33,129 nucleotides of DNA from a virus, in IMG/VR virus record IMGVR_UViG_3300014325_000010, positions 1 to 33,129 of that record; one strand, given 5' to 3'. How positions within the stretch are numbered: position 1 is the stretch's first letter; each line of letters opens with the position of its first letter. The position numbers were made by a program, and so were the translations under genes. The notes under the pieces were generated by a model. The model did no database searches. It was not told where the DNA came from and saw only the letters and a program-made list of their open reading frames with translations. Positions 1 through 24,949 of the stretch are shown in pieces.

Positions 1-1
1 A

Positions 2-307
2 AATATACATAATAATCATTCTGAAAAATGGAAAAGAAATCTAAGTAAAGGTAAGATAGGGAATAAAAATTCGTTTGGAAATATCCAATCTGATGAATCA
101 CGAGAAAGAAAGCGAATAGCTGCTAGCAACAAAACACATTCGTTAGAAACCCGCCAAAGAATAAGTCAATCTCAAGAACTTCGTTGGAATCCTACCCGTG
201 AGTATTTAGAAAATCAAATTACTAAAACACAAACCAAACTTGACAAAATTATCAAATTTCCAGATCCAAAACCTGAACGAAAGAATATAGAATTTCAAAA
301 ACCATAG
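2..307 (+). CDS. 3' end of an upstream gene (partial, runs off the window start). Carries NUMOD3-like DNA-binding repeats of the kind found in homing endonucleases.
   Basis: Open frame from the window edge to TAG at 305-307. Translation ...HSEKWKRNLSKGKIG...SDESRERKRIAASNKTHSLETRQRISQS contains repeated (S/T)xExRxKIS motifs, as in NUMOD3 repeats of GIY-YIG/HNH homing endonucleases. Confidence 0.4.
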   Translation, partial: NIHNNHSEKWKRNLSKGKIGNKNSFGNIQSDESRERKRIAASNKTHSLETRQRISQSQELRWNPTREYLENQITKTQTKLDKIIKFPDPKPERKNIEFQKP

Positions 308-373
308 ACAAACTAGATAACTTGATATCAAAATTAACTGCAATGTTTAACATTGAGTTAGAAAGTAACTAAA

Positions 374-970
374 ATGCAGATTGGAAATTTGCGTGGAACC
401 AGTGGCACCGGAAAGAGTACAATTATTCGTAATTTGATGGCTAAATATTCAAAACGTGAACCTCAATTTATTACTGGACGAAAACAACCAATATCGTATA
501 AATTATACAGAGATGATGGTGGTTCACCATTATTTGTTTTAGGACACTATGAAATGCCAACCGGAGGCGTCGACACCATCAGTGGTATGGAACTCATATA
601 TAAAATGATAAATGAAGCAGCTGATTCAGGATTTGATGTAGCATATGAGGGACTTGTTGTAAGTTCAGATTGTGTTCGTTGCATCGATTTAAAAAATCGC
701 CATTCATTACTTGTTATTGAACTAACTACCCCAATTGAGGTTTGCCTTGAAGGAATTCGCGCTCGGCGAGCTGCTAGTGCAGCAGCTAAATCGGCGAAAA
801 AGGGCATTGAAATAATACCAAAAGAAGTTGACCCCAAGAATACCGTGGCTAAACAGAAACAAATTGTGCCCCAACGGAAAAGGTTCAAAGCCGCGGGTGT
901 TGATTTTAGAATGCTTAATCGAGAAGAAGCCATGCAAGCGATATTAACCCATTTTGGGTGGCCTTCATGA
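374..970 (+). CDS. P-loop nucleotide or DNA kinase. Candidate 5-hydroxymethyl-dU DNA kinase (5-HMUDK-like), judged from context.
   Basis: Walker A GTSGTGKST at the N-terminus, about 200 aa. Lies immediately upstream of the candidate aGPT-pyrophosphorylase and close to a thymidylate-synthase-family hydroxymethylase. Confidence 0.5.
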   Translation: MQIGNLRGTSGTGKSTIIRNLMAKYSKREPQFITGRKQPISYKLYRDDGGSPLFVLGHYEMPTGGVDTISGMELIYKMINEAADSGFDVAYEGLVVSSDCVRCIDLKNRHSLLVIELTTPIEVCLEGIRARRAASAAAKSAKKGIEIIPKEVDPKNTVAKQKQIVPQRKRFKAAGVDFRMLNREEAMQAILTHFGWPS

Positions 971-1107
971 AGAGTGATCATTTTATTGAACGGTGTAAAA
1001 ACTGTGGAACTGTAATTTCACAATGTCGTTGTGTTGATCCCAACAAGAAATTGCTTTGGGGTATTTGCGATAAATGTAAAGGTAAAGATGCAACTACTAC
1101 AAGCTAA
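967..1107 (+). CDS. Small Cys-rich zinc-ribbon protein (46 aa)
   Basis: ATGA overlap with the kinase stop. Translation MKSDHFIERCKNCGTVISQCRCVDPNKKLLWGICDKCKGKDATTTS contains CxxC...CxC...CxxC. Overlaps the 5' extension of the next ORF, so either this ORF or the GTG-1031 extension is real. Confidence 0.25.
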   Translation: MKSDHFIERCKNCGTVISQCRCVDPNKKLLWGICDKCKGKDATTTS

Positions 1108-1954
1108 CGAATTCTTTGCCTTTGAGCGCGAACGATACAATATCTATCTGCGCCGGCAAGCAGGTCAAAAATGGCCCTGGACTGATGATCCTATCCTTCG
1201 AGAGTATCGCTTCACTAACACGTTTCGAGAGTTAGATCGGACTACGACCTGGTTTCGGGAAAATATCCGTGGTCCACTTTCACTCAAAGCTACAAACGAC
1301 GAAGGTCGTTTGAAACTTGTTAATTCAACACTAATCTTTCGATGGTTCAATCGTATATCCTCGATGGAATTGATTAAAGAACAACTTCTTAATACGTGGG
1401 ATTCAAAAGAAGTTCATCGAATACTTAAGGATGTGAAGCCACTGGTATCTGGTGCCTTCATGATCAAAACCTTATCTGGTTTGAATAAGCTTGATGGTCT
1501 AATGGAATCCATTGATCTTGCTTTATTGATGACACCAAATATGGTACCAGGTTGGGGTGCTACGCTCGAAGGAGCATGGAGGGATATTCAAAGCATTCCG
1601 TTCCTCGGAGCGTTTATGGCGCACGAGATCGTGCAAGATTTGTATTACACACCAATCTTATGTGATGCAACCGATGCAATGACTTGGTCGAGCTTTGGCC
1701 CAGGTGGTACTCACGGGATGAGTAGAATCGTCTCGGGTCACGCCAAAATGTTCAATCGAGGTTCGGCCACTGACCAAGCTACTATGCGTGAAGCGATGAT
1801 CCAACTACTCGAAATGAGTAATAAGGAGGAATATTGGCCGCAGGAATGGCCGACGTGGAACGCCCATACAGTCGAATTTGGATGTTGCGAATATGATAAA
1901 TATTGCCGAGGTATGGTTGGTGAACGATTGAAACGCAGGTACAGTCCTACATAG
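1088..1954 (+). CDS. Candidate alpha-glutamyl/putrescinyl-thymine pyrophosphorylase (aGPT-Pplase-like). The track ORF starts at GTG 1031; an ATG at 1088 is the alternative start.
   Basis: Long ORF directly after the P-loop kinase. I recalled the family only from the conserved kinase-then-pyrophosphorylase gene order of thymidine hypermodification clusters; no direct motif check was possible. Confidence 0.4.
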   Translation: MQLLQANEFFAFERERYNIYLRRQAGQKWPWTDDPILREYRFTNTFRELDRTTTWFRENIRGPLSLKATNDEGRLKLVNSTLIFRWFNRISSMELIKEQLLNTWDSKEVHRILKDVKPLVSGAFMIKTLSGLNKLDGLMESIDLALLMTPNMVPGWGATLEGAWRDIQSIPFLGAFMAHEIVQDLYYTPILCDATDAMTWSSFGPGGTHGMSRIVSGHAKMFNRGSATDQATMREAMIQLLEMSNKEEYWPQEWPTWNAHTVEFGCCEYDKYCRGMVGERLKRRYSPT

Positions 1955-1964
1955 GAGAATAGCA

Positions 1965-2933
1965 ATGGACACTTATGATTTTGAATCAAAACATCTCTAT
2001 CGTAAACGTCGGGAATTATGTATAGATCGTTTTGCGGTTGGAAGTTTTCGAGATCGTAAAGTAGCCTATCTTGATACTCGAGAAGCTTTAGATACTATTT
2101 CGTATCTGAAAAGAGGATACAGACCAAAGAATTTATGGGCTATTAATCGAGATCCCGTAGAGGTGGCTTTACTAACACAGAAATTAGATAAACTAGGATT
2201 ACCCAGAATTAATACATGTGGTCTGGAATTTGAAGAAGCACTTGAAAAACGTGTACCAGAAGTCAACATCATTGATTTTGATGGAATGTCTTGTATACAC
2301 CAAAAATTACTAGACATGTTACACCGTATTGTTAATAAAAGACCAAATGTATTGTATGGATTAACACTCTTAGGTGGAAGAGAACAATCCAAAAATGACA
2401 CAAGATTTGCTTTTTCTGAAAAAGCCCAGTATAACAAAGTTAGAAATTACTTTCCAGAAGAACTATTTGTAGGTACAGATACAGAGGGTGTAATTGTTGT
2501 ACAAAAGAATCTTTTAGATGAATTTGCACATTTAGTAACTCACGCACAAACTCGTGAAACATCTTTTGGTACAATAGTTAATGCATCACACCATGATCGT
2601 CTTAGTGTTGTATTTGAAGCATTTAACGATCCAAGTAAAGCGGGGACTAAATATGTGGATGCTAGTAAATGTAAAATTCATGTTATCGAAGTACGTTGGG
2701 ATGTGTATGTGTCAATTTCTAATCAACCCATGATTTGGGCAATTTTTAGAACAGAACCTCATCGATCATTACAACTGTCAGATATTCCAAATTACATTAA
2801 AAGAACAGATTGCTTGGCAACACCAGAATGCCGAGTAGAAGATTACGTAAAAAGTGTTAATGTGGAAACAAAGAAAAACAAATTTTTAGAAAATGCATTA
2901 CACAGTCACTTTCTAAGTTGGACACGCATATGA
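1965..2933 (+). CDS. Hypothetical protein (322 aa) embedded in the thymidine-modification cluster
   Basis: Clean ORF, tightly spaced 10 nt after the previous stop. I recognised no motifs. Confidence 0.55.
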   Translation: MDTYDFESKHLYRKRRELCIDRFAVGSFRDRKVAYLDTREALDTISYLKRGYRPKNLWAINRDPVEVALLTQKLDKLGLPRINTCGLEFEEALEKRVPEVNIIDFDGMSCIHQKLLDMLHRIVNKRPNVLYGLTLLGGREQSKNDTRFAFSEKAQYNKVRNYFPEELFVGTDTEGVIVVQKNLLDEFAHLVTHAQTRETSFGTIVNASHHDRLSVVFEAFNDPSKAGTKYVDASKCKIHVIEVRWDVYVSISNQPMIWAIFRTEPHRSLQLSDIPNYIKRTDCLATPECRVEDYVKSVNVETKKNKFLENALHSHFLSWTRI

Positions 2934-3169
2934 TCCATGTAATCACTAATCAACCAACTTACGATGAGTCGGAAGAAAAATCCTGGCCCGAGCGAGCTAT
3001 TAAAAGTCATGAAATGGTGCAAAATCGATATGACTTTAATGCTCGTACTGCTATTCGAGTGATTCTCGAATGTGGTCATTCTTGTGTGCTTACAGGTGAA
3101 GCAATATTCGAAGAGGGAACTTCTATTCGGTGTAAGCTTTGTGCCGATCAGTTGAATCAGATGCGTTAA
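2918..3169 (+). CDS. Small Cys/His-rich protein. An alternative start at ATG 2930 would overlap the upstream stop as ATGA.
   Basis: ECGHSCVL...CKLCAD pairs suggest a zinc-binding fold. Confidence 0.4.
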   Translation: MDTHMIHVITNQPTYDESEEKSWPERAIKSHEMVQNRYDFNARTAIRVILECGHSCVLTGEAIFEEGTSIRCKLCADQLNQMR

Positions 3170-3286
3170 AAGTATCAAGATGTTCGAATGACTATCCAAA
3201 AAGTCTGCTAGTTACAGTTCCTTTGAGTGAATCAGATAGACGTCAGTAACATATTACGTGAGTTGATGGATTAACTTTCAAGTACT

Positions 3287-3826
3287 ATGCTAATGAAACA
3301 TTATTTACAAGAAATAGAAATTTCTAAACTTCAACAGCAACTCACAGCTAAGAAAGGGATAGTTTCTGGAAATTGTGCTCGTTGTGGAATATATCGTTGG
3401 TCTTTAGATAGAGATCATAAAACTTGTAAATGGAAATGTAAACAATTAGGATGGACTGTAGAACAAATAGAAGATTACACCAATATACAATATCTATGCC
3501 AAAATTGCCATCACGATAAGACTCATAAAGAAGATCTTATTGGAAGAAAATTATCTGCTGAACACGTTGAAAAAATTATTCAAGCAAATACTGGAAGAAA
3601 ATACTCAGAAGAGACTAGAGCTAGAATGAGTGCTGCCCAAATTGGGCATACACACTCAGAAGAATCAAAATTACGAATGAGCCAAGCAAGACGAGGACGT
3701 CCTCCTGGTAATTTTGGAACCACAACAAAAGATTTGTTAGAAACAATAGAAAAAGAAAAACGAAAACTAGATAAATACACTAAGAAATTAGAGGAGCAAT
3801 CAAATAATGAAAGTTCTAGTAGTTAA
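3287..3826 (+). CDS. HNH homing endonuclease with NUMOD3 repeats
   Basis: CARCG...CQNCHHDKTHKED matches the HNH/zinc-finger core. Two NUMOD3-like repeats: GRKYSEETRARMSAAQIG and HSEESKLRMSQARRG. Confidence 0.7.
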   Translation: MLMKHYLQEIEISKLQQQLTAKKGIVSGNCARCGIYRWSLDRDHKTCKWKCKQLGWTVEQIEDYTNIQYLCQNCHHDKTHKEDLIGRKLSAEHVEKIIQANTGRKYSEETRARMSAAQIGHTHSEESKLRMSQARRGRPPGNFGTTTKDLLETIEKEKRKLDKYTKKLEEQSNNESSSS

Positions 3827-4877
3827 AAATAATCAAGAAGGTCTGTCAAAAGCTTTATCCCTTCTATATAAAGAAGGCGAACAACGAAATTCTAGAAATG
3901 GTCCAGTATTAACCACACCATATCCAGTAACAACTGTTTTTGAAAAACCGCTAGAGCGTATCATTTTTAATCCAGAGAGAGATTACAATTGCGCATTTAT
4001 TTTATATGAAGCAATGTGGATGCTTGCAGGACGTAATGATGTTGCACCAATTGCACGATATGCTAAAAATATGATGAATTATTCTGTTGATAAAACTAAT
4101 CTTCATGCAGCATATGGCCATCGTTGGCGTAAACAGTTTGGAATAGATCAATTAGAAATAATTGCTCAACGACTTCAAAATAATAAAGAAGACCGTAGAT
4201 CAGTATTACAAATGTGGGATTCCAGACTTGATCTTCATCGTGATGATAAAGCTTTGGATCTTCCATGTAATGACACGTGCACTTTCCAAATTGGAGCTGA
4301 TGGAAAATTATATTTAGTGGTTTTTTGTAGATCTAATGATGTTGTTTGGGGTACATTTTTTGCAAATCAGGGACATTTTAGTACACTTCTCGAGTACATG
4401 AGTTTATATATTGGTGTTCCAATCGGAACTTATACACAAATAAGTGTTAATTTTCATGGATATCTAAATGTATTAGATACTGTTAAAGAATTACAATACG
4501 CTGATTTTAAAAATCCATACGAACATGGTATTAGTACACTTCCAATGACAGAATCTCGTCATGGCGAATCCCCAAACGACACGATCAAACGCCTTGATAA
4601 ATCTATAAAAGAATTATTGTTACATGCTGATACAAATTTCAAACTCCCTCGATTAGAAAATGATAACGAAACATGGGTAGACGTAGCATACGCAGTTTTA
4701 AAAGCACACGAATTATGGCGGACACTTGCGGCTCCAGAGCGATTCGAGGAACCTCTTAAGGTATTAGCAGCTCAACCTAAAAATGTAGATTGGATTGTAG
4801 CTATGCGAGAGTGGATAGAACGTCGTCAAGCTATTTGGGAACAGAAGCAAATTGCTGGAGGGAAAATTCAAGAATGA
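3807..4877 (+). CDS. Thymidylate-synthase-family pyrimidine hydroxymethylase (probable dUMP hydroxymethylase)
   Basis: Translation aligns with the ThyA core: HRWRKQFG, DQLEIIAQRLQNNKEDRRSVLQMWD, LPCNDTCTFQIGADGKLYLVVFCRSNDVVWG. The catalytic Cys lies in a PCx context, as in ThyA's PCH. Kinase and pyrophosphorylase neighbours favour a hydroxymethylase over a true thymidylate synthase. Confidence 0.8.
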   Translation: MKVLVVKNNQEGLSKALSLLYKEGEQRNSRNGPVLTTPYPVTTVFEKPLERIIFNPERDYNCAFILYEAMWMLAGRNDVAPIARYAKNMMNYSVDKTNLHAAYGHRWRKQFGIDQLEIIAQRLQNNKEDRRSVLQMWDSRLDLHRDDKALDLPCNDTCTFQIGADGKLYLVVFCRSNDVVWGTFFANQGHFSTLLEYMSLYIGVPIGTYTQISVNFHGYLNVLDTVKELQYADFKNPYEHGISTLPMTESRHGESPNDTIKRLDKSIKELLLHADTNFKLPRLENDNETWVDVAYAVLKAHELWRTLAAPERFEEPLKVLAAQPKNVDWIVAMREWIERRQAIWEQKQIAGGKIQE

Positions 4878-5215
4878 TACCTCTATCATTACTAGCTGTT
4901 CATACATTTGCTGATTTTGTTTGTCAGACAAATTGGATGGCAACCAATAAGTCCAAGAATTGGCTTGCTCTTTATGTCCATGTCATAGTGTACAGTCTAT
5001 GTTTTTCTTATTGGGGGTTGTCATTTGTGGCATTTACATTTGGTACACATCTTATCACAGATGCTGTTACCAGTAGAATGACTGCTTATCTATACAAGAA
5101 TTTTGATGATCAGCATTTCTATCAACCAAATTCTCATTGGTTTTTTGTGGTGATAGGATTTGATCAATTAATACATTTTGCTACTCTCGCTTACACGTAT
5201 CAGAGGTTTATATGA
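4874..5215 (+). CDS. Small polytopic membrane protein
   Basis: ATG at 4874 overlaps the upstream TGA. MIPLSLLAVHTFADF...WLALYVHVIVYSLCFSYWGLSFVAFTFG gives 3-4 predicted TM helices. Confidence 0.5.
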   Translation: MIPLSLLAVHTFADFVCQTNWMATNKSKNWLALYVHVIVYSLCFSYWGLSFVAFTFGTHLITDAVTSRMTAYLYKNFDDQHFYQPNSHWFFVVIGFDQLIHFATLAYTYQRFI

Positions 5216-5412
5216 AACTACAATACAAGAAATTTGAAAGTGGTACCAAATCATGGAAAACTATGTGTGATGAGGTTGTTACCTTCGTGAATGGGTTGGT
5301 TCGGGTGAACGGCATACCACCAGCACAGATCATGAACATCTCAATTGGTGAAAATGGACCTCCAATAGGTGCTAATGGAATTATTGTCGTGTGGTATTGG
5401 GTGGAGGATTAG
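5212..5412 (+). CDS. Small protein, tandem paralog A (C-terminal IIVVWYWVED)
   Basis: Shares the pattern ...FVN.L....P....NIS......G....VVVW(Y/F)W with the next ORF. Confidence 0.45.
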   Translation: MKLQYKKFESGTKSWKTMCDEVVTFVNGLVRVNGIPPAQIMNISIGENGPPIGANGIIVVWYWVED

Positions 5413-5414
5413 TC

Positions 5415-5648
5415 ATGAAGAAATTACATTTCAAAGCTTTTGACACAAACGAATATACTCACAGATTACAAATGGTAGCAGCTGCAACTAAGTTTGTCAA
5501 CAAACTAATCACCGATTTACAAATATCACCAATTGATGTTTTTAACATTTCTATGGATTCGTCTCCAGCAGAAAAAGGAGCTTATTCTGTTGTTGTCGTA
5601 TGGTTTTGGGCTGACGAAGAGTATGGATCAGAATTGTTAAAGGACTAA
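5415..5648 (+). CDS. Small protein, tandem paralog B (C-terminal SVVVVWFWADEEYG)
   Basis: ATG at 5415 preceded by GGAGG. Paralogous to 5212..5412. Confidence 0.45.
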   Translation: MKKLHFKAFDTNEYTHRLQMVAAATKFVNKLITDLQISPIDVFNISMDSSPAEKGAYSVVVVWFWADEEYGSELLKD

Positions 5649-5650
5649 AG

Positions 5651-5824
5651 ATGCTGCCACCTTTGTGCGTTCCAACATGTGTTTTTCCAGATAGTAAACC
5701 ACCAGAAAGAATGGTATCAAAGAAAGAGTTATGTCCGCGTTGTGAATCCGAGAATTTGGCAAAGATTAAAGGTTGTATCCACTGTTTGGATTGTCATTTC
5801 AAACAAGATTGTAATGGGTGGTAG
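5651..5824 (+). CDS. Zinc-ribbon protein (57 aa)
   Basis: MLPPLCVPTCVFPD...CPRCESENLAKIKGCIHCLDCHFKQDCNGW carries four CxxC-type pairs. Packed exactly between the neighbouring stop (5648) and start (5825). Preferred over the overlapping GTG-start track ORF 5679..5861. Confidence 0.45.
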   Translation: MLPPLCVPTCVFPDSKPPERMVSKKELCPRCESENLAKIKGCIHCLDCHFKQDCNGW

Positions 5825-6121
5825 ATGCATAAATTTGAAGCACACATTACTTGTCATGTAAATCAAGCTGATGAAGTCAAAATTATTGGAGTTGAATTTG
5901 GTTGGAAATTTAGTTGCATTGAGGGCGATGCACTAATGGGTCCTAAACCCTATTGCTATCTTACTGGGTACTCTACAGACAAACACGAGTTGTACTTTAA
6001 TGTACAAAGACTCACAGTGACCTTACAAAGACGAGGAGTAGAGGTACTGAGATCTAAAATAGAACAGATTATCTTCGATACAAAAACTGGAATTGATGAA
6101 TTAGCAATTGGTGAACAATGA
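5825..6121 (+). CDS. Hypothetical protein
   Basis: ORF with ATGA overlap to the next gene. Confidence 0.4.
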   Translation: MHKFEAHITCHVNQADEVKIIGVEFGWKFSCIEGDALMGPKPYCYLTGYSTDKHELYFNVQRLTVTLQRRGVEVLRSKIEQIIFDTKTGIDELAIGEQ

Positions 6122-6357
6122 AAGTACGAGTAAATTTTAGACAGAAAAGATTCTTTGGATCAGTATACAAAGAAATTGAATTAGCAATAGATCCACAAAT
6201 TGGAATGCATTTCGAATATGAAAAAGACTGGGCGTTAGCAACTGTAACCAGTATTTCTGTTGGTAAAGATTGGATTGAGATCGATCAGTATTATCCACTG
6301 TTTGATGAAGAAGAATTAGAGCAATTACAAAAGTTGGGTTGGACCGTTCGACGGTAA
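6118..6357 (+). CDS. Hypothetical protein
   Basis: ORF, acidic C-terminus. Confidence 0.4.
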   Translation: MKVRVNFRQKRFFGSVYKEIELAIDPQIGMHFEYEKDWALATVTSISVGKDWIEIDQYYPLFDEEELEQLQKLGWTVRR

Positions 6358-6427
6358 TCTAATGTTGGGAAAGTTTCATTGTAGTGAATGAACCATATCA
6401 CTAGACTGTAACATAACAATTGAGTAG

Positions 6428-6985
6428 TTGATGAAAATCATCAGTAAAAAACAATTTTTCGATATGTGGCGAGCAGGTGTTTTAGGTAATCGGACAAGAC
6501 TCTGGAACGATCCAGTTAAATGTTTCGAAGAATCAACTGACTTGAATATTAAAACAATAGGTTTTCGAGAGGTTGGTAAAACGGGTGGTGGTGCGTGGGA
6601 AAAAGTCCCTCTCGAAAAGATGTTAATTACAGCGCGAAAATGGAAAGATGCTGGAAGAACGTTCATTTTAGACGATGGTTGTCCTGATGAGAAAAGGACG
6701 ATTCAAGGTGAAATTTGCCGTACAGAATTGGGTCTGTATGGCTATCTTGATACGAAGAGTATTCTTCCAATGCGTCCAGCGATTGCAGCGGGACATATGC
6801 GATCTTGTTCTTATGCGACGTGCATTGCACTTCTGGATCGTTATATGGATGCTAGCAGCCGGGACGATCTAGAGATGTTGTTAGAATTGTATCCCGACCA
6901 TGTTATCGAGTTCACAAGCTTCTCAGTTGATGTAGGAGTGTTTCCAAATAGAAACACGCTTTTTTGGGAGACAAGGTTATTCTAA
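6428..6985 (+). CDS. Hypothetical protein with possible divergent Walker A and B motifs
   Basis: IGFREVGKTGG fits GxxxxGKT after a hydrophobic strand. RTFILDDG fits hhhhDD. The pairing is suggestive only. Confidence 0.45.
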   Translation: MMKIISKKQFFDMWRAGVLGNRTRLWNDPVKCFEESTDLNIKTIGFREVGKTGGGAWEKVPLEKMLITARKWKDAGRTFILDDGCPDEKRTIQGEICRTELGLYGYLDTKSILPMRPAIAAGHMRSCSYATCIALLDRYMDASSRDDLEMLLELYPDHVIEFTSFSVDVGVFPNRNTLFWETRLF

Positions 6986-7263
6986 TGGCTATCAGTACTG
7001 ATTGGGTAAAAGATGCAGCAACAGAAATTGCTGTCTCACAAAATGCAGAACAATTCATAGGTTATTTCTATGCAATCATAGATAAACATTGTCCTTTCGA
7101 GTACGACACTGCATACGAACCCTACAGTGCAGAAAGGGCAGATGCAATTAAGAATCTCAAAGCAGCTCTTGCTAAATTTGATAAAGCTCGAGAAGAACGT
7201 AAATTTATCAATCTAGTAGATCTGGTTGAAGCAGCTAGAGTAGTAGTTAATTATGGCAACTGA
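6985..7263 (+). CDS. Hypothetical protein
   Basis: ATG at 6985 in a TAATG overlap with the upstream stop. Confidence 0.4.
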   Translation: MAISTDWVKDAATEIAVSQNAEQFIGYFYAIIDKHCPFEYDTAYEPYSAERADAIKNLKAALAKFDKAREERKFINLVDLVEAARVVVNYGN

Positions 7264-7432
7264 ACCAACCTATACTTGCACTAAATGTGGGTTTGTGAAA
7301 ATTATCAAGAAAAGCCCTGAAGCTACAGAAAGATGGTTTAAGAAATATCACAAATGCAATGCACCTATCAAATATCTTGCAGGGTTTGATGTAAGTGACT
7401 GGTATAGAAGAAAACAAGGTGAGAAAGAATAA
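7253..7432 (+). CDS. Small zinc-finger-like protein (59 aa)
   Basis: MATEPTYTCTKCGFVKII...KYHKCNAP. TAATG overlap with the next start. Confidence 0.35.
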   Translation: MATEPTYTCTKCGFVKIIKKSPEATERWFKKYHKCNAPIKYLAGFDVSDWYRRKQGEKE

Positions 7433-7626
7433 TGGATACATATGAGATTTCCGAATTAAAAGCACTTCTCAAAGAATGTTATTCACGAGTTCCCGAGGCT
7501 CGCAAAGGTCGAGAACGAGTCATCGACTACGATCCAGCAGGGAGTACATACGAATTTACAGAATATGAATGGTCGAAGCGAGCACGAGAAATTCTAGGTA
7601 TTACTTGGGAACCAAATGGTATCTAA
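7432..7626 (+). CDS. Hypothetical small protein
   Basis: ORF. Confidence 0.35.
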   Translation: MDTYEISELKALLKECYSRVPEARKGRERVIDYDPAGSTYEFTEYEWSKRAREILGITWEPNGI

Positions 7627-7628
7627 TC

Positions 7629-7838
7629 ATGACTGTTAGAGAATTAATACAAGCTCTTAGCAAATTTCCGCCAGAAGCCCATGTATATCTGAATGAAGAT
7701 GTAGATACGAATTGCATGACGGAAGACTATGTCCCTGAATCATTACAAATCGATGAATTTATGTTACGAACATACAACTGGAATAACAGATTTGTTCGTC
7801 ACAAACCAATAGTGGGTGAACAGGTTGTTATACTTTGA
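7629..7838 (+). CDS. Small protein with an ELIQALSKFPPE motif. Paralog of 11487..11651.
   Basis: MTVRELIQALSKFPPEAHVYL... aligns with MTAKQMIELLSKFPPEMSDEVLVRL. Confidence 0.4.
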   Translation: MTVRELIQALSKFPPEAHVYLNEDVDTNCMTEDYVPESLQIDEFMLRTYNWNNRFVRHKPIVGEQVVIL

Positions 7839-8617
7839 TCACAGATCTCATCTCTCTCGATCGTCCGTTGATCGCTCTGGATGTTGAAACCACGGGGCTC
7901 TCACATAGACAAGACAGGATAGTTCAACTTGGTCTAGTTAAGGTGTACCCCGATGGCAAGATGACAGAGTTTGAAACACTTCTTAACCCAGGAATACCAA
8001 TCTCAGAAGAAGTATCTGCCATTCATCACATCACAGATGAACTTGTTCGAGATGAACCCTCTTTTGCTGATGTAGCACCAGTATTGTTTGCTGGACTTAA
8101 AGAGTGCGATTTGGTCGGATATAACATCTTTGGATTCGATATTAAATTCTTAGTCAGCGAATTTCTTCGTTGCCACATAAGATATGTAGTTCCACGCATT
8201 ATCGATTCCTTTAAGATCTTTACCAAACACCACCCTCGAAACCTACAAAGTGCTGTACAACAGTATCTAAACGAGGATTTACTAGATGCACATAGTGCTC
8301 TAGCCGATGCTCGTGCTACGATGCGTGTATTCGAGGCACAACTAATTCGACATCCAGAACTCCCTCGAACTATACAAGAATTGCATGACCATTACTTTCC
8401 AAGAAATAAAGACAGTGTTGATCCAGATAACAAAGTTATCTTCATCAATGACGAAGCCTGTATCAACTTTGGAAAACACAAAGGCATCGCACTTCGACTC
8501 ATTCCAAAAAATTACCGTCAGTGGCTTGCAAACGATCGAGAAAGTACAGATGAACTTAAGTTCATCATGAAAGAAAGTCTCGCTGGTCGTTATCCCACGA
8601 GAGAGGCACAAAAGTAA
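7835..8617 (+). CDS. DnaQ-like (DEDDh) 3'-5' exonuclease with a C-terminal extension
   Basis: Exo I motif LDVETTGL. Also ...[11 protein letters not shown]... and ...[14 protein letters not shown].... ATGA overlap with the upstream gene. Confidence 0.7.
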
Positions 8618-8618
8618 C

Positions 8619-9170
8619 ATGTTGAAAAATGATCGTTGGATTTACGAAATGTCAGTGAAACATCAAATGATCTCACCATTTGTTGATCGACAACAAAGCG
8701 ATGGAAAGATCTCCTATGGATTATCATCGTATGGTTATGATCTACGGGTTGGGTCTCATTTCAAAATACTCACTAACACTTACAATTCGATTATAGATCC
8801 TAAAAAGATTGACCCACAATCACTTATAGATATCTATGCAGATGAATTTTGTATAATTCCACCAAACTCATTTGCATTAGCTAGCTCTATCGAGTACTTC
8901 AAGATCCCTCGAAATATCCTAACTATCTGTCTTGGTAAATCGACATATGCTCGATGTGGTATCATCGTGAATGTTACTCCCTTCGAGCCGGAATGGGAAG
9001 GTAACGTTACATTAGAAATTTCCAATACAACGCCGTTGCCGGCTAAAATCTACGCGAACGAAGGTCTTGCACAAGTGCTATTCTTGGAAAGCGATGAACC
9101 TTGTTTAATATCCTACAAGGATCGCAAAGGTAAATATCAAGGACAAACTCAGATTACTCTTCCTAGGTGA
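8619..9170 (+). CDS. dcd: dCTP deaminase (Dcd / dUTPase-fold)
   Basis: [10 protein letters not shown] signature, ...[20 protein letters not shown]..., ...[11 protein letters not shown].... About 183 aa. Confidence 0.8.
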
Positions 9171-9173
9171 TTT

Positions 9174-9329
9174 ATGTTACGATTTTTTAAAATTTGTAGA
9201 CACCCATTGCGTTGGATGATGGGTTCTTGTTTTATTTGTGGTGAGTTAATGCTGTTCGAGCCTCCTGTTCCCATTATCGGTAACAAACGTGGATTTTGCT
9301 ATACTCATGGTACATCTGGGAGTTTGTAA
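9174..9329 (+). CDS. Questionable small Cys/His ORF (51 aa) overlapping the candidate terminator
   Basis: MLRFFKICRHPLRWMMGSCFICGELM...CYTHG. Coding status is uncertain because of the terminator-like element inside it. Confidence 0.2.
   Translation: MLRFFKICRHPLRWMMGSCFICGELMLFEPPVPIIGNKRGFCYTHGTSGSL
9192..9225 (+). terminator. Candidate intrinsic terminator after dcd
   Basis: ACCCAT/ATGGGT stem followed by TCTTGTTTTATTTGT. Resembles the stronger terminator at 15254. Confidence 0.3.
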
Positions 9330-9333
9330 GTAG

Positions 9334-11058
9334 ATGACTGATTTGATTGACTTGTCCGAAGCTGTAGACATTCTTGATGAAGTTGACGTTCCAAAGAAAA
9401 TAGTCGAGGATCCACCTCGAATAGCCGAACTTCGAAAAGAACTTGGACTTGATCCATGTCCTATTAAACCATATATACATCAAGTAGTTGGTATCGAGGC
9501 ACTTGTGAATAATCCTGTCTTCGCCCTTATGGATGAGATGGGAATCGGAAAATCGCTGCAAATTATTGTTTCGTCTATGATATTATTTAAACGTGGTCTT
9601 ATCGATCACGTGCTGATTATTGCACCAGCTTCTGTTATTCGTGGCGTTTGGTTTGACCCAGAACTTGGCGAACTTGCTAAACATCTATGGAAGGAAGTTC
9701 CTTGCGAAGTGAATCTTTATCGAGGGAGGGGACATACTTGGTTATGGCCTGATCAAAAACCAAATGTCCGTCGATTAAAATTTACGATCGCAAACTACGA
9801 GTATCTACGAACAAAAGAACGATTGAAGCCGTTACTCAAAGCGGTCAACAGAAAGACCTTTCTCATACTCGAAGAATCAACTGCTGTCAAAAGTCGTAAA
9901 GCACAACAAACCAAAGCATGTGTTAAATTACGAAAAAAAGTTGGACGAATTTGCTTACTCAATGGTACACCAATCGCTAACTCTCCTGTAGACATGTTAA
10001 GTCAAGGGAATATCATGTCACCTGATATTCTCGAGTGTGATTCAAAAGCACATTTTCTTGAACGATATGCACTAACAACCAAGAAGTTCGGCTTCGAGAA
10101 GGTTGTTGAATGGGTTAATATTGATGATTTACAAAGACGATTCGCGCCATATATTCTGCGACGTCTAAAGAAGGATTGCCTCGATCTACCTCCGAAACTT
10201 CCGCCAGTTACGTTAACAGCTACGTTGACACCAGAAACTTGGGCCATCTATAAAGAGATGAAAGAGAATATGGTGGCGTGGCTTAAGAATCCAGATGGAC
10301 TAGTCACGGCTAGTCAAATTATTGTTCGAGCGATACGTCTGTCCCAAATTACGTCTGGTTTTATTGGTGGTCTCGAAGAAGTTCCAAATTTTGCCAAAAC
10401 AGTAACGAACGAAATAATTGAAAAACCACAAAGACCTGATCGTCCTTCGTTTATTGTTCGTCCAGGATTTACAGAATTACCAACTAGACAAGAAGTTGTT
10501 GGTACAGAAGTCGAGGGATTTGATAGAGTACGCGAAATAGGAAAAGAAAAGTTAGACGTCTTCCTCGAGACTTACGCTAAGTTCTTAGAAGAAGATGCTG
10601 CGTTAAAATTGCTCACGTGGTGTCGGTTTCGTCCCGAACTCGGACGACTTATTAAAGCGCTCCGAATGCAGTACCCTACATTAGCTCTCGGCGAAATCCG
10701 CGGCGGTCAAAAGAAAGAAGAACGACAAGACGCGATACGTCTACTCGACCCACGGACTATGTCTCAAACCGAACCTGCAACGGTGGTATGCACGGATGCC
10801 GGCAGTTTAGGGTTGAATCTTACAGGAGCTCATACCGTTATTCGAGTGAGTCAGGGGTATTCACTGTATAAATCACTCCAGGGTGAGGATAGAATACATC
10901 GGCCAGGACAGATCCATCCTTGCTCCTATTTCGATATTATTGCGGAAGGTCCAAAGGGGCAAAAGACTATAGACCATAGTGTGGCTAAGGTGTTACGGCA
11001 AAAGCTTGATATCGCCACGTTTACAACAAGTGCTTGGGTAAATGCCCTCGAAGAATAA
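9334..11058 (+). CDS. SNF2-family DNA-dependent ATPase/helicase
   Basis: Motif I DEMGIGKSLQ, motif II ILEEST, SNF2 motif III LLNGTPIANSP. The C-terminal helicase domain has LGLNLTGAHTVI and RIHRPGQ. Confidence 0.8.
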   Translation: MTDLIDLSEAVDILDEVDVPKKIVEDPPRIAELRKELGLDPCPIKPYIHQVVGIEALVNNPVFALMDEMGIGKSLQIIVSSMILFKRGLIDHVLIIAPASVIRGVWFDPELGELAKHLWKEVPCEVNLYRGRGHTWLWPDQKPNVRRLKFTIANYEYLRTKERLKPLLKAVNRKTFLILEESTAVKSRKAQQTKACVKLRKKVGRICLLNGTPIANSPVDMLSQGNIMSPDILECDSKAHFLERYALTTKKFGFEKVVEWVNIDDLQRRFAPYILRRLKKDCLDLPPKLPPVTLTATLTPETWAIYKEMKENMVAWLKNPDGLVTASQIIVRAIRLSQITSGFIGGLEEVPNFAKTVTNEIIEKPQRPDRPSFIVRPGFTELPTRQEVVGTEVEGFDRVREIGKEKLDVFLETYAKFLEEDAALKLLTWCRFRPELGRLIKALRMQYPTLALGEIRGGQKKEERQDAIRLLDPRTMSQTEPATVVCTDAGSLGLNLTGAHTVIRVSQGYSLYKSLQGEDRIHRPGQIHPCSYFDIIAEGPKGQKTIDHSVAKVLRQKLDIATFTTSAWVNALEE

Positions 11059-11938: not shown

Positions 11939-12241
11939 ATGAAACGAAAATGGCCTTCGGATATCATGTTAGATTTCGCTCGAATACTGATTCCAGCGGG
12001 TTATGTAATGGACACGATAAAGATTCCATTTAAACATCGTCATGGAATTGGTCATTACACGTTGGACTTCGCTCATCCTGAGGCCAAGGTAGATATTGAA
12101 ATCGACGAGACTTATCACCGCAGAGGCAAACAGCCTCTGCGTGATAAGCGTAGAGATGACTGTGTTCGAGAGGCAGGTTGGAAAGTTATCCGTATACCTG
12201 TGAACAAGATTGACAGAATACTTCTAGATAAAAGAAGATGA
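11939..12241 (+). CDS. DUF559/Vsr-like (PD-(D/E)xK-type) endonuclease-domain protein. Paralog of the C-terminus of 14499..14909.
   Basis: IMLDFARILIPAGYVMD...LDFAHPEAKVDIEIDETYH aligns with ...IMLDFAKVLCPAGYLMD...LDFAHPEAKVNIEIDGEIH. Confidence 0.5.
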   Translation: MKRKWPSDIMLDFARILIPAGYVMDTIKIPFKHRHGIGHYTLDFAHPEAKVDIEIDETYHRRGKQPLRDKRRDDCVREAGWKVIRIPVNKIDRILLDKRR

Positions 12242-12338: not shown

Positions 12339-12893
12339 ATGAGTTCGGTAGGGAGGAAAGAATTGGGTAAGTACGCGCATCTCAACCTGCCTCGGATCGT
12401 ATCTACGGAACCCAGTCGTCAAGACAAAGTCGACCTCAAGAAGCTCCAAATCCTCGAAAAGCTCCCACTCAATCAGCAAGAATCGGCATCTATCTTTGCT
12501 AGCTACTATGCCGGAGTTCGCCGCGAGAAGGACGAACTTAAACAGCAACTTGCTGAGCTCAATCTTGAAGTTGAAGCGGCCAAACAACTTCTAGTTGAGC
12601 AATACGAAGCTCACGACATCGAGTCGTTGAAGCTGAGTAACGGTGATACTGTTCGAATCCAAATCGAACCGTATCTCGTTGTCGAAATGCCCGGTAAATT
12701 TAGACTATGGTGTGTAAGAAACGGATACGAACAATCTTTACAGCTGCCTTGGAGCACAGCAAACTCAGTCGTCAAAGCTTTATTGCTAAAGGGAAAGCCG
12801 GAACCAGATGGCACACGGGCGTATATGCTATCTAAAGCTGTCTTTTCTGCTGGTGATAAAGATCATGCCGAAAGCGAAGGTGATGACGAATGA
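12339..12893 (+). CDS. Hypothetical coiled-coil protein. Start is more likely TTG at about 12363, downstream of GGGAGG.
   Basis: ORF with a Gln/Glu-rich coiled-coil N-terminal half and an acidic C-terminus. Possibly Gp157-like, but I am not confident. Confidence 0.45.
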   Translation: MSSVGRKELGKYAHLNLPRIVSTEPSRQDKVDLKKLQILEKLPLNQQESASIFASYYAGVRREKDELKQQLAELNLEVEAAKQLLVEQYEAHDIESLKLSNGDTVRIQIEPYLVVEMPGKFRLWCVRNGYEQSLQLPWSTANSVVKALLLKGKPEPDGTRAYMLSKAVFSAGDKDHAESEGDDE

Positions 12894-13135
12894 CGTTTCT
12901 ATGCCTTCCAGTAAGTTCTCGTCCACGAGAAAATATTGGAACTGCCGTTACAAGAGCTTGTAAAGAAATTTCCGTTTCACACCCAGAGTATGAGTTTATG
13001 GCAGTGGTCCCTCGAATCTACACATATTTTGGTACTTCGCCAGAAAGGTTCGAAACCACTGAAGTAGACTTGTTATTTAAATTTGACGAGCAGAAAAAGG
13101 GAGTATCACATGGCCGATCTACAGAAAACCGCTGA
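12890..13135 (+). CDS. Hypothetical small protein. Overlaps the next gene's start region.
   Basis: ORF, ATGA overlap upstream. Confidence 0.3.
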   Translation: MTFLCLPVSSRPRENIGTAVTRACKEISVSHPEYEFMAVVPRIYTYFGTSPERFETTEVDLLFKFDEQKKGVSHGRSTENR

Positions 13136-13898
13136 CGGAACTCTTGTTAAAAGAATGTCGTTTGTTCCGACCAATGACACTACTGGTACGGACGATATTG
13201 CTGAAAATGAAGTACGACTCCCTCGATTAGCAATTGCACAAGGTCTATCGTCACAAATCACTCCAGATAGTTCAGACTACATTAAAGGACTATCTTTGTT
13301 TGAATTGTTTAACGACCTTACAGGCACGATTTACCATCGTGGCCCACTCAAGTTTGTACCTATCAAACGTGTTGTTCGTCGTATCGAATTTGATCCTGAT
13401 AATCGAGGAGTTCCAATTGACATGGATGTACCATTCAATGACCCTCGTTGTCAATGGACTGAGAACGAACAAACCGGTGAACGAGAAGCGCCTCGAGCTA
13501 CCAAGTTCACGGAATTTGTGATTTTTCTAATCTTTGACGACAAGAAACCCGAACCAATCGTCTTGTCTATCAAAGACACAAACAAGTGGAACCGCAAAGC
13601 AGCAGAACGCTTGACGGCTCTAATCAAGATTCGCCCTCCAATCTACTCGACCTATTTCACTGTTGAAAGCAAAAGCGAGAAAAACGATTCCGGTACGTTT
13701 GGAGTCTATGCAATTAAACAGCTCATGGCTTTAGATGATCCGGAACAAACCGACGCAGAATGGGAACGTTCATCCAATATCTACGCGCTTGCGAAACAAT
13801 TTCGTGAGTCCCTCGAAGGGAAGAACATCGTTGTTGAGCGTGAAGCACCTAAGGAAGACGATGCAGATAGCTTTGACGTTGATGATCTGGAGAAGTAA
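13110..13898 (+). CDS. Hypothetical protein with a strongly acidic C-terminal tail. Start taken at ATG 13110, after GGGAG.
   Basis: Ends ...EDDADSFDVDDLEK, reminiscent of SSB-type acidic tails. Otherwise no recognised domain. Confidence 0.5.
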   Translation: MADLQKTADGTLVKRMSFVPTNDTTGTDDIAENEVRLPRLAIAQGLSSQITPDSSDYIKGLSLFELFNDLTGTIYHRGPLKFVPIKRVVRRIEFDPDNRGVPIDMDVPFNDPRCQWTENEQTGEREAPRATKFTEFVIFLIFDDKKPEPIVLSIKDTNKWNRKAAERLTALIKIRPPIYSTYFTVESKSEKNDSGTFGVYAIKQLMALDDPEQTDAEWERSSNIYALAKQFRESLEGKNIVVEREAPKEDDADSFDVDDLEK

Positions 13899-14498: not shown

Positions 14499-14909
14499 TT
14501 GAGTTGGCCTGTCGGAAAAAGACACACACCAGAAGCTAGAGCAAAAATTTCAAATGCGGCACGGCAACAGTGGCAAGATCCAGTAATAAGAAAGAAACAT
14601 GTAGATGGACTGTCATACGCAATGATGAACGAGACACGTCCAGGTGCTATTGGTCAGCCACAAACACAAATAATGTTAGATTTTGCTAAAGTTCTTTGTC
14701 CTGCTGGTTATCTAATGGATGAAATTAGAATACCATTACAAAATAAAGTGGGAGGTTGTTACAGATTAGACTTTGCTCATCCAGAAGCAAAAGTCAATAT
14801 AGAGATTGATGGTGAAATACACACGCGTCCTTATCGGCGCAGAAATGATGAACTTCGTGATGAGCATTTACGAAGTCTCGGGTGGAAAGTTATTCGGATA
14901 AGAATGTAG
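14499..14909 (+). CDS. NUMOD3-like plus DUF559/Vsr-like endonuclease-domain protein. TTG start directly after an in-frame TAG.
   Basis: GKRHTPEARAKISNAARQQW is NUMOD3-like. LDFAHPEAKVNIEIDGEIH is the nuclease core. Confidence 0.5.
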   Translation: MSWPVGKRHTPEARAKISNAARQQWQDPVIRKKHVDGLSYAMMNETRPGAIGQPQTQIMLDFAKVLCPAGYLMDEIRIPLQNKVGGCYRLDFAHPEAKVNIEIDGEIHTRPYRRRNDELRDEHLRSLGWKVIRIRM

Positions 14910-18312: not shown

Positions 18313-18518
18313 AACTTAGAGATCAAATGGATGCACTACGAATTCATCATATTGTGGTACATCGACTAGAACTCGAAAATGGAACACTGGGTATCGATAT
18401 TAGTTATTTTTTCGATGACAATCCTAAACTTTCTTATTCAGTCCGCGAATTTAATAGGAACAGTAAAATACGAAGGGCTCTCGAATTAATCGAAACGCAC
18501 CTTCGAAAGGACGTATAA
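18309..18518 (+). CDS. Hypothetical small protein
   Basis: ORF, ATGA overlaps on both sides. Confidence 0.4.
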   Translation: MKLRDQMDALRIHHIVVHRLELENGTLGIDISYFFDDNPKLSYSVREFNRNSKIRRALELIETHLRKDV

Positions 18519-19471
18519 TGGCTAAGACGACTGTTGGCGCGGTAGTAGGTCGGTTCCAAGTGCCCGAACTTACACAAGGACATCGCGATCTACTCAACGC
18601 GGTCATGGAACGATCAGATCGTTTAGTCATCCTTTTGGGTGTGTCGCCACTCGACGGAAAAGTAAAAGAAAATCCACTGACATTTGATCAACGAACTTCG
18701 TTGTTCCGTGATTACGGACACGCAACAATTCTTCCCGTGTTTGACCAGCCAAATGACAAACTGTGGTCTACCGCTCTTGATAGACTACTCAACGATTTGT
18801 TTCTTGGTTCGGAAATCACATTATTTGGTGGGCGTGATTCCTTTACAACTTCGTACATGGGCCAATTTGGTACGGAGATACTATCATTTCATGCGAGTGC
18901 AACGGTGCAAGGCACAAAGATGAGAAACGCGATTAAGGAATCTCGCGAACCGGAATTTCTTCGAGGGCAAATCTACAGTCTGGTAAACCAATACCCAAAA
19001 ACTTTTCCAACCGTTGATATTGTCGTAATCAAAGACACAGAGTTACTACTTATTCAACGAGCCGATACAAGCGAATGGACCCTACCAGGTGGCTTTGTAG
19101 ATCCAACCGATAGATCGCTTGAACTTGCTGCCAAACGCGAATTATATGAAGAACTTGGTATCTTGAGCGACGAAAATATGGTGTATGTTGGTTCGACGGT
19201 AATCAATGATTGGCGTTATCGATCATGTCGTGATAAAATCATGACGTCGTTGTTCGTTATTGAACCAACAATTGAATCTATTACTCCAAATCCGCTCGAA
19301 GTACAAGATTACAAATGGGTGAAATTGCTTGTGGCATTAGAGGTAATTGCGCCACACCATATACCCTTGATTCGTATGCTTATCACTAGGCACCTGAAAC
19401 TATTTGTCAGGGAAAACGAACTTGACCAAACTGGGAAGATTACTTCGGACACACGTATTCTTCGAGGGTAA
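18518..19471 (+). CDS. nadM: Bifunctional NMN adenylyltransferase (NadM-type) / Nudix hydrolase
   Basis: N-terminal GRFQVPELTQGH carries the (H/T)xGH nucleotidyltransferase motif. C-terminal Nudix box LPGGFVDPTDRSLELAAKRELYEELGI. Confidence 0.75.
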   Translation: MAKTTVGAVVGRFQVPELTQGHRDLLNAVMERSDRLVILLGVSPLDGKVKENPLTFDQRTSLFRDYGHATILPVFDQPNDKLWSTALDRLLNDLFLGSEITLFGGRDSFTTSYMGQFGTEILSFHASATVQGTKMRNAIKESREPEFLRGQIYSLVNQYPKTFPTVDIVVIKDTELLLIQRADTSEWTLPGGFVDPTDRSLELAAKRELYEELGILSDENMVYVGSTVINDWRYRSCRDKIMTSLFVIEPTIESITPNPLEVQDYKWVKLLVALEVIAPHHIPLIRMLITRHLKLFVRENELDQTGKITSDTRILRG

Positions 19472-21071: not shown

Positions 21072-21470
21072 ATGGTTCCGTACGAGGGCGGAAAGGTGTA
21101 TGGGCCTTACATAAGGCTGGAAGATGATAGAAGTCATGTTGTCATTGTCTTTCCAGATAAGACACGACGAACTGTGTCTTACCCAAAATACCTTATGGAA
21201 ATCAAATTAGGTCAATATCTAGAACGAAATGAAGAAGTACACCATAAAGATGAAGATGTAACAAATGAAGATCCAGATAATTTGGTAGTAATAAATGGAA
21301 CAACTCACAGAAAGTTACACAACCCTGTAGATCCGCCAACCATCTTAATTTGTGCTTGGTGTGGAATAGAATTTGAAGTTGATAAGAATCATTACCGTAA
21401 TCGACAAAGAAATCATATAAGTTCAGGACCATTTTGTTCAAAACAATGTAGTGGATTCGTTAATAATTAA
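21072..21470 (+). CDS. HNH endonuclease
   Basis: ...EEVHHKDEDVTNEDPDNLVVINGTTHRKLHN... plus a C-terminal Cys4 (CAWCG...CSKQC). Confidence 0.65.
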   Translation: MVPYEGGKVYGPYIRLEDDRSHVVIVFPDKTRRTVSYPKYLMEIKLGQYLERNEEVHHKDEDVTNEDPDNLVVINGTTHRKLHNPVDPPTILICAWCGIEFEVDKNHYRNRQRNHISSGPFCSKQCSGFVNN

Positions 21471-24721: not shown

Positions 24722-24949
24722 ATGGAATGGTATAGTATTTGCTGGTCACTAGTGTTACTTCCTTGGTGTTTCGGAGGATGGCGGCCACGTTGTTCAGCCA
24801 CGTTGTGGCTAACAATCCATGAAGACGTGTTTAGGACACGTAAAATAAACCAATCTGGTGAACGTGTCGTTGTCTGGAATTGTTCGAGATGCCAAAAAGA
24901 AATAGGCGAAACAACTTCCCAACTCTCTTTACACAAGAATCTGCGATGA
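24722..24949 (+). CDS. Small Cys-rich protein. ATGA-coupled to the SLOG gene.
   Basis: ...CWSLVLLPWC...WNCSRCQKE.... Confidence 0.35.
   Translation: MEWYSICWSLVLLPWCFGGWRPRCSATLWLTIHEDVFRTRKINQSGERVVVWNCSRCQKEIGETTSQLSLHKNLR

Follow-up and report, generated by a model that had tools for sequence, protein, structure and literature searches.

Supply-and-activation core of a predicted thymidine-hypermodification pathway in a large uncultured phage

Introduction

Does the left end of the IMG/VR virus record IMGVR_UViG_3300014325_000010 encode a complete pathway for hypermodifying thymidine, and which enzyme would attach the final chemical group? We analyzed positions 1 to 33,129 of this record (hereafter the window), a view of 33 kb into a 161-kb contig. 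A first-pass annotation had read positions 374-5215 as a gene cluster for a base derived from 5-hydroxymethyldeoxyuridine (5-hmdU), with a P-loop kinase, a candidate aGPT-type pyrophosphorylase and a hydroxymethylase of the thymidylate synthase (TS) family. All of the open reading frames (ORFs) that it named were found at the positions given, all on the plus strand, in a compact and partly overlapping array (Table 1). Our conclusion is that the cluster is real but incomplete: the three core genes are of an already known kind, and the phage is new, large and uncultured. It is fairly probable, in our judgment, that the window carries the supply-and-activation core of a thymidine-hypermodification pathway without the enzyme for the final chemistry, an amino-acid:DNA transferase (AADT) most likely being encoded outside the window.

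If this is true, a base derived from 5-hmdU takes the place of part of the thymine in a large phage, and the restriction and sequencing behavior of its DNA would be affected. Among 50,697 deposited phage records none is related to this phage at the DNA level; a megablast search of window positions 1-9200 against phage records gave no DNA-level match.

Core genes and gene order

The kinase, PF18723 and TS-like genes of the window are collinear with gp49-gp50-gp51 of phage PaMx11 (tblastn E-values 1.7e-38, 1.8e-61 and 1.4e-75, respectively), and with values of 1e-38 to 1e-75 a chance resemblance is excluded. The trio is homologous to the experimentally worked-out PaMx11 and M6 types (PMC8989533), whose pathway functions were established by biochemistry (PMC8989533) and structure (PMC11472151). 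The first-pass annotation is supported on this point. The stop codon of the kinase gene overlaps the start of the zinc-ribbon ORF, which in turn overlaps the start of the PF18723 gene. A gap of 10 nt separates the PF18723 gene from a methyltransferase-fold ORF (1965-2933), whose stop overlaps the 79-aa ORF. Further downstream, a homing endonuclease gene overlaps the TS-like start (3807) and the TS-like stop overlaps the start of the DUF3307 gene (4874). The PF18723 and TS-like genes are 1.85 kb apart. The GC content over the cluster is 35-43%, and 373 bp are visible upstream of the kinase gene.

The kinase has the Walker A motif and, at 198 aa, the length expected of a 5-hmdU DNA kinase (5-HMUDK; about 190-210 aa). 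Its gene is located just 5' of that for the PF18723 protein, an arrangement common to most of the 23 related loci with a kinase (see below). The kinase shows 41% identity to PaMx11 gp49 and 23% identity over 199 aa (full length, E 1e-6) to MP1412 gp13 (M6 gp54-type). It also matches the Sonora kinase (E 8.5e-9), a protein that does pass the Pfam profile PF18748 (HMUDK_HMUD1). The first-pass annotation had correctly called a P-loop kinase here and had suggested profile or structure searches against 5-HMUDK families; in the Pfam search the window kinase is below the PF18748 cutoff (15.4 vs 27 bits). The low score counts against the assignment, as does the fact that gp49 is only listed as a 5-hmdU DNA kinase, in Table 1 of PMC8989533, with no assay of gp49 found in the main text. 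At a cutoff of E 0.001, PaMx11 gp49 likewise went unmatched by PF18748, which therefore fails to cover the gp49-type subgroup. It was concluded that the gene encodes a homolog of the phage 5-HMUDK, with that activity predicted. The kinase also gives a weak tblastn match (26% identity) to a P-loop NTPase of cyanophage Pam3.

The TS-like protein matches phrog_5131 over its full length, a PHROG family apart from ordinary TS, and is 40-42% identical to PaMx11 gp51 and Sonora gp44, again at full length. Its nearest solved structures are the CMP hydroxymethylase MilA (E 3e-16) and then ThyA (1e-10 or weaker). The equivalents of E. coli ThyA R21, E58, Y94, R126/R127, C146, R166, S167, D169, N177, H207 and Y209 are kept (C154, R30, R130/R131 and R175-S176-x-D178 are present in window numbering). 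P153-C154-N155 lines up with P145-C146-H147 of E. coli, in agreement with the PCx active-site context of the first-pass annotation. N187 lines up with N177 of ThyA, where MilA has Asp; the Asn suggests uracil rather than cytosine as the substrate. Both folate-site tryptophans are replaced (W80 by M90, W83 by S93), and MilA has the same local pattern. In TS, loss of the W80 equivalent lets solvent or thiols trap the exocyclic methylene intermediate. The protein fails eight of eight NCBIfam ThyA equivalog cutoffs (best score 80.7 vs 174.6 bits). Since MilA is the nearest solved relative, W80 and W83 are lost, the ThyA cutoffs are failed and such a gene accompanies PF18723 in each of 37 loci (see below), dUMP hydroxymethylation is predicted as its most likely activity.

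A plain thymidylate synthase and a nucleotide kinase serving ordinary nucleotide metabolism, with canonical T in the DNA, would account for the Pfam Thymidylat_synt match and the full set of core catalytic residues, and the kinase has AAA and P-loop families as its top generic Pfam matches and 'terminase small subunit' as the PHROGs label of its family. We consider this explanation very improbable. Among solved structures the TS homolog is closest to a hydroxymethylase, its scores fall far short of every ThyA cutoff and the two tryptophans are gone; it shares 40% identity over the full length with TS-like genes of phages that hypermodify with 5-hmdU derivatives, and its linkage to PF18723 is constant. 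The kinase for its part resembles PaMx11 gp49 and stands in the same gene order.

The PF18723 protein

The proposal of an aGPT-type pyrophosphorylase at 1088-1954 stood at the level of the superfamily and not at the level of the clade. The protein scores 125.7 bits against PF18723 (former aGPT-Pplase clade 1, Pfam 'HMUDK_hel'; cutoff 25), with residues 7-277 aligned to profile positions 5-276 of 281, and is 39% identical to PaMx11 gp50. It matches PF18723 only and not PF18724, the proven transferase clade 2. Known proteins that were scanned follow the same division: PaMx11 gp46 and Sonora gp39 are PF18724 ('ADDT'), PaMx11 gp50 and Sonora gp42 are PF18723 ('HMUDK_hel').

The AlphaFold model (predicted local distance difference test, pLDDT, 96) has an all-helical, helix-hairpin-helix (HhH) DNA-glycosylase-like fold, and the protein is a paralog of the amino-acid:DNA transferases. 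A phmmer search against PDB sequences returned only spurious mitoribosomal matches. C267-E268 and K271 do not vary among 55 homologs, and E263 is almost invariant, giving the motif V-E-x-x-x-C-E-x-x-K. The AADT motif is E241-V-E243-x-x-L-C247-K-W-K250, in which C247 is the catalytic nucleophile (PMC11472151). Alignment of PF18723 with PF18724 by hhalign lines up both motifs and is not significant overall (probability 0.15%, E 0.38). A statistical link between the two families by hhalign was rejected at this E-value; their kinship rests on the fold and the common motif E-V-E-x-x-L-C-x-x-K.

Search for the transferase and census of related loci

The first-pass annotation had placed the displacement step inside the cluster and had named pyrophosphate as the group displaced by an amine or amino acid. 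Neither part was borne out. The activated intermediate is a monophosphate, 5-phosphomethyldeoxyuridine (5-PmdU; PMC8989533), and PF18724 is the family for which replacement of this phosphate by glycine, serine, putrescine or 1,3-diaminopropane was shown (PMC8989533, PMC13458397). Because 1088-1954 belongs to PF18723 and no AADT-like ORF was found, the displacement has no known catalyst inside 374-5215.

We therefore turn to related loci. A collection of 80 IMG/VR loci around PF18723 homologs, plus the contigs of the closest homologs, was the starting point of a census, and the final set was limited to loci whose PF18723 gene is flanked by at least 8 kb on the upstream side and at least 4 kb on the downstream side, 37 non-redundant IMG/VR loci in all. 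The 23 loci with a kinase gene all have an AADT-like gene as well, at a distance of 1.0-7.1 kb from the PF18723 gene, and none of the 14 kinase-less loci has one. The kinase-less loci have instead a gene like the TET-associated glycosyltransferases (TAGT) in 12 of the 14 cases, and the complete PhiJL001 genome is of this kinase-less glycosyltransferase type. The TS-like gene was found beside the PF18723 gene in all 37 loci, that is, in both the kinase/AADT branch and the glycosyltransferase branch.

The two closest relatives of the window are uncultured large-phage contigs, L010 (JGI Ga0643299_0000012, 138 kb) and L011 (Logan SRR29078260_11774), with 81-82% identity in the PF18723 protein, 65-70% in the kinase and 57-60% in the TS-like protein; the 79-aa ORF is also kept. 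In a first census, which used an AADT hidden Markov model (HMM) made from PaMx11-like sequences only, 7 of the 37 loci had a kinase without an AADT. The resulting class of 'AADT-less kinase + PF18723 + TS' loci, which seemed to include the window, L010 and L011, was an artefact and was dropped. Clustering of the neighboring ORFs revealed a divergent family with weak-to-clear PF18724 matches in exactly those loci and in L010 and L011. The members of this family are all homologous to one another (matches to the family HMM at E 1e-48 to 1e-168), and their alignment with PaMx11 gp46 has a single invariant column, that of the catalytic Cys. Several members score above the PF18724 cutoff (L034, 70.7 bits; L037, 52.5; L012, 34.7; L014, 32.6; L021, 28.6). 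The AADT-like genes lie 8.4-9.3 kb upstream of the kinase gene, two in L010 and at least one in L011, and in L011 a GFO/IDH/MocA oxidoreductase gene adjoins it. A kinase and an AADT-like gene thus occur within about 10 kb of each other in 25 of 25 loci in this sample. The divergent family may serve an uncharacterised thymidine modification.

Since all 23 kinase loci as well as L010 and L011 have an AADT-like gene, and the view upstream of the kinase ends here after 373 bp, the transferase of the window phage is most likely encoded off-window. Several points weigh against this reading. The transferase is predicted and not seen, the view being 33 kb of the 161-kb contig. No AADT-like ORF was detected in the window by tblastn with PaMx11 gp46 and Sonora gp39, by the canonical and divergent AADT HMMs on six-frame ORFs of at least 60 aa, or by Pfam on the annotated genes and other non-shadow ORFs of at least 90 aa. 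With 20-21 bits, the AADT-like proteins from L010 and L011 do not themselves reach the PF18724 gathering score of 26.2 bits. Synteny with L010 is also incomplete upstream of the kinase: the Band_7 gene, upstream of the kinase in L010, has its ortholog at 26.8 kb in the window, a difference in position that implies rearrangement, and the RlaP and Metallophos_2 genes of L010 have no counterpart in the window.

A rival reading is a phage with no AADT at all, in which the pathway ends at 5-hmdU or 5-PmdU, or in which the PF18723 protein acts on 5-PmdU by nucleophile transfer or by reduction to thymine. The lack of an AADT-like gene in the window and the imperfect synteny with L010 speak for such a phage, as do the invariant Cys-Glu in a motif matching that of the AADT catalytic Cys and the precedent of SP10, whose clade-1 domain forms one protein with the kinase (PMC5889632) and for which the 2018 gene table gives no second Pplase paralog (PMC5889632, Table 3). 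We judge it unlikely. An AADT-like gene accompanies every kinase in the census and is found in both nearest relatives, and the apparent AADT-less class vanished once the divergent family was modeled. The clade-1 protein M6 gp55 was dispensable for transfer in vitro, with N-alpha-glycinylthymidine as the product (PMC8989533), and the hhalign comparison of PF18723 with PF18724 was not significant.

Possible function of the PF18723 protein

The PF18723 protein is not merely an accessory of the kinase, because it is present in the kinase-less glycosyltransferase loci. Its constant hydroxymethylase partner, its AADT/HhH-glycosylase fold and the Cys-Glu pair kept in the motif of the AADT catalytic Cys indicate that it is probably a DNA-pyrimidine enzyme. 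We speculate further, and give the idea a rather small chance, that it is a catalytically active, Cys-dependent enzyme and does not serve the kinase as a mere passive 'helical domain'. It could be a converter of residual 5-hmdU or 5-PmdU in DNA to thymine; the enzyme for the 5-hmdU-to-thymine step 'is still unknown' according to PMC5889632. Alternatively, it could be the sole transferase of this phage. For annotation, the clade-1 'Pplase' tracks the hydroxymethylase and not the kinase, which makes its function a well-defined experimental target. This protein, present in both branches with its putative catalytic Cys-Glu kept, is the most interesting part of the locus.

Proposed pathway

The analysis shows homology, fold, shared gene order, conserved residues and the co-occurrence of genes across loci; from these we infer all enzymatic activities, the off-window transferase and the modified base itself. 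The dCTP deaminase would raise the deoxyuridine nucleotide pool. The TS-like enzyme would then convert dUMP to 5-hmdUMP before replication, by hydroxymethylation instead of methylation, and after phosphorylation 5-hmdU would enter the phage DNA in place of T. After replication, the P-loop kinase would phosphorylate the 5-hydroxymethyl group in DNA to give 5-PmdU. Finally, a PF18724-type AADT, most likely encoded off-window, would exchange the phosphate for a nucleophile through a covalent intermediate between its Cys and C6.

The deaminase is a bona fide dCTP deaminase by its family match (167 vs 92.8 bits) and can be predicted to feed the dUMP pool via dUTP. The first-pass annotation had it supplying dUMP; the enzyme family was right, the product is dUTP with dUMP reached indirectly, and the characterised systems use a dCMP deaminase. 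The final base cannot be named because no gene in the window encodes the enzyme for the attachment step, and the caution of the first-pass annotation on this point was correct. The appended group may be new, given that the transferases of the relatives are below the Pfam threshold and have no homolog in cultured phages. The donor may also differ from glycine, serine, putrescine and 1,3-diaminopropane, since a tblastn search with the L010 AADT-like protein found no match among the 50,697 phage records. An annotation rule emerges from the census: in this sample, a 5-HMUDK-type kinase always comes with an AADT-like gene within about 10 kb (25/25).

Other genes in and around the cluster

Table 1. 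Features of the cluster and its surroundings in the window, and divergent AADT-like genes of related contigs.
Feature	Coordinates	Strand	Basis or remark
NUMOD3-type homing endonuclease, 3' end only, cut by the window start	2-307	+	Frame-2 translation; Pfam NUMOD3 24 bits (cutoff 20.4); gene call on Logan contig L003
P-loop kinase, 5-HMUDK homolog, 198 aa	374-970	+	Walker-A GTSGTGKST at residues 8-16
Zinc-ribbon ORF, 46 aa, CxxC...CxxC	967-1107	+	Read from sequence; 64% identical ORF at the same position in L011
PF18723 protein (former aGPT-Pplase clade 1, Pfam 'HMUDK_hel')	1088-1954	+	Pfam E 3e-36
Class-I S-adenosylmethionine (SAM)-methyltransferase-like fold protein, 322 aa	1965-2933	+	Predicted model
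Cys/His-containing ORF, 79 aa	2930-3169	+	Kept upstream of the TS-like gene in L010 and L011
HNH/NUMOD3 homing endonuclease	3287-3826	+	Pfam NUMOD3 E 3.9e-11; PHROG homing and HNH endonuclease families
TS-superfamily enzyme, predicted dUMP 5-hydroxymethylase	3807-4877	+	Pfam Thymidylat_synt E 5.7e-19; phrog_5131 E 8.5e-96
DUF3307 protein, predicted membrane protein	4874-5215	+	Pfam DUF3307 E 3.1e-8; phrog_2470 ('membrane protein') E 1.2e-16
Tandem small paralogs	5212-5412 and 5415-5648	+	Mutual 30% identity, E 2e-12
dCTP deaminase	8619-9170	+	NCBIfam TIGR02274 167 bits (cutoff 92.8); Pfam DCD E 1.5e-33; phrog_1663 E 6.5e-57
Divergent AADT-like genes	L010 3-704 and 708-1604 (tandem pair); L011 285-1238		Also in L012, L014, L021, L029, L048 and others

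The methyltransferase-fold ORF has a predicted Rossmann-like, seven-strand methyltransferase fold and no match in Pfam, PHROG or NCBIfam searches. It could be a dedicated tailoring enzyme, for example one that methylates the appended group, which would make the modification unlike the characterised ones. Its place inside the cluster, tightly packed between the PF18723 gene and the 79-aa ORF, is consistent with this, and tailoring genes (acetyltransferase, radical SAM, pyridoxal phosphate or flavin adenine dinucleotide (FAD) enzymes) are typical of such clusters (PMC8989533). We regard this as improbable. The family has at least 32 proteins, and its alignment conserves YLDT, FDG and RE motifs rather than GxGxG, with no glycine-rich SAM motif evident. 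Homologs in three other phage contigs adjoin nicotinamide phosphoribosyltransferase (NAMPT), helicase or structural genes, and neither a kinase nor a PF18723 gene is near them; the sole TS-type gene near any homolog encodes a 284-aa protein in L005, about 7.6 kb away. The L010 copy (P0009) adjoins NAMPT, and at the position occupied in the window L010 has an unrelated ORF and L011 has small ORFs only. Because its homologs occupy unrelated phage contexts, the ORF is probably a passenger or unrelated insertion and not specific to the pathway. A tblastn search with it against the phage records found no match. An identity as a divergent AADT or Nmad5 was also tried, the sole lead being a tblastn match to Sonora Nmad5 at E 1.5, and was ruled out by the methyltransferase fold and the silence of Pfam and PHROGs.

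Four genes were absent from the first-pass annotation: the zinc-ribbon ORF, the 79-aa ORF and the homing endonuclease genes at 3287-3826 and 2-307. The zinc-ribbon ORF gave no match in Pfam or NCBIfam. The 79-aa ORF has homologs in L010 (11809-12012) and L011 (11390-11599) with 44-54% identity (E 3e-16 and 2e-21), and Pfam gives only a sub-threshold zinc-finger match. The homing endonuclease gene 3287-3826 interrupts the cluster between the 79-aa ORF and the TS-like gene. It has no counterpart at the same position in L010 or L011, and phage RaNi carries a GIY-YIG nuclease at the equivalent site; it is a mobile element and not a pathway gene. The endonuclease at 2-307 is likewise outside the pathway and marks the left limit of the visible DNA, at the edge of both window and contig. 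Homing-endonuclease-type genes are abundant in the window (also at 11939-12241, 14499-14909 and 21072-21470); besides the NUMOD3/HNH type there are two of DUF559/MTES_1575-like type, one of which has a NUMOD3 motif, and an HNH_3 gene.

The membrane protein that had been noted at 4874 is a DUF3307 protein, and a tblastn search with it against L010 and L011 gave no match. The tandem small paralogs of the first-pass annotation are indeed paralogous; they have one homolog in L011 and no family match. The methyltransferase-fold ORF, the homing endonucleases and the DUF3307 protein are probably passengers.

Outside the cluster, a NAD-salvage gene pair is found at 18518-19471 and 19471-20901, encoding a cytidylyltransferase-like N-terminus fused to Nudix and a NAMPT (phrog_448, E 2e-122); the pair is kept in the relative L004. 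Other genes encode a cpYpsA SLOG-family protein (24880-25389), an ATP-dependent DNA ligase (25386-26411), the SPFH/Band_7 protein (26799-27788), a denV-like pyrimidine-dimer DNA glycosylase (27785-28198) and a TPM-domain protein (29104-29997). Homologs of cyanophage Pam3 gp34 (13083-13898) and, more weakly, gp33 (12339-12893) are also present. Together with the kinase match, the similarities to Pam3 hint at the lineage of the phage.

Comparison with known systems

Among the uncultured relatives, L010 and its continuation L004 follow the gene order of the window all the way from kinase to ligase, and L011 matches the window over the 7.4 kb that it covers. Both relatives lack the homing endonucleases of the window and have no methyltransferase-fold ORF at this site.

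The closest characterised system is the PaMx11 gp46-gp51 cluster, which makes 5-acetylaminomethyldeoxyuridine (5-AcNmdU; PMC8989533, PMC11472151). It shares with the window the order and strand of the kinase, PF18723 and TS-like genes at 39-41% identity, and the mechanism of the shared steps (hydroxymethylation of dUMP, then phosphorylation of 5-hmdU in DNA) is presumably the same. In PaMx11 the kinase gene directly follows genes for a glycine:DNA transferase (gp46), an FAD lyase (gp47) and an acetyltransferase (gp48), and an HD-domain protein is encoded downstream; the window has none of these four. The window in turn has the zinc-ribbon ORF, the methyltransferase-fold ORF, the homing endonuclease and the DUF3307 gene. 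The window phage is also larger (161-kb contig vs 60 kb) and carries a dCTP deaminase, whereas PaMx11 has a dCMP deaminase.

The M6/YuA-like phages (5-aminoethyldeoxyuridine, 5-NedU), ViI, PhiW-14 and SP10 have, like the window, a TS-like dUMP hydroxymethylase, a 5-HMUDK and a clade-1 Pplase paralog (M6 gp55, ViI gp160, PhiW-14 gp72 and the C-terminal domain of SP10 gp186; PMC5889632, PMC8989533). MP1412, which is M6-like, has the same trio, at 30% identity for the PF18723 protein and 23% for the kinase. The transferases and tailoring enzymes of these phages are known, and those of the window phage are unseen. The ViI pathway genes are dispersed through a large genome, and this is likely the case in the window phage.

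PhiJL001, a phage of Alphaproteobacteria, and pelagiphage-type contigs (PMC9599517) have the PF18723 and TS-like pair in common with the window. Their loci have no kinase and no AADT-like gene, and carry a TAGT-like gene instead. This second architecture was found in L015, L025, L030, L033, L059, L068, L073 (PhiJL001), L075 and L081-L088, and it suggests glycosylated 5-hmdU. One further locus, L052, has a family-A DNA polymerase with an N-terminal uracil-DNA glycosylase (UDG) domain (6852-9512) adjoining the PF18723 and TS-like pair, a fusion that matches the UDG-PolA fusions of bioRxiv 10.1101/2025.03.26.645540. The window belongs to the kinase branch and not to the PhiJL001-type branch.

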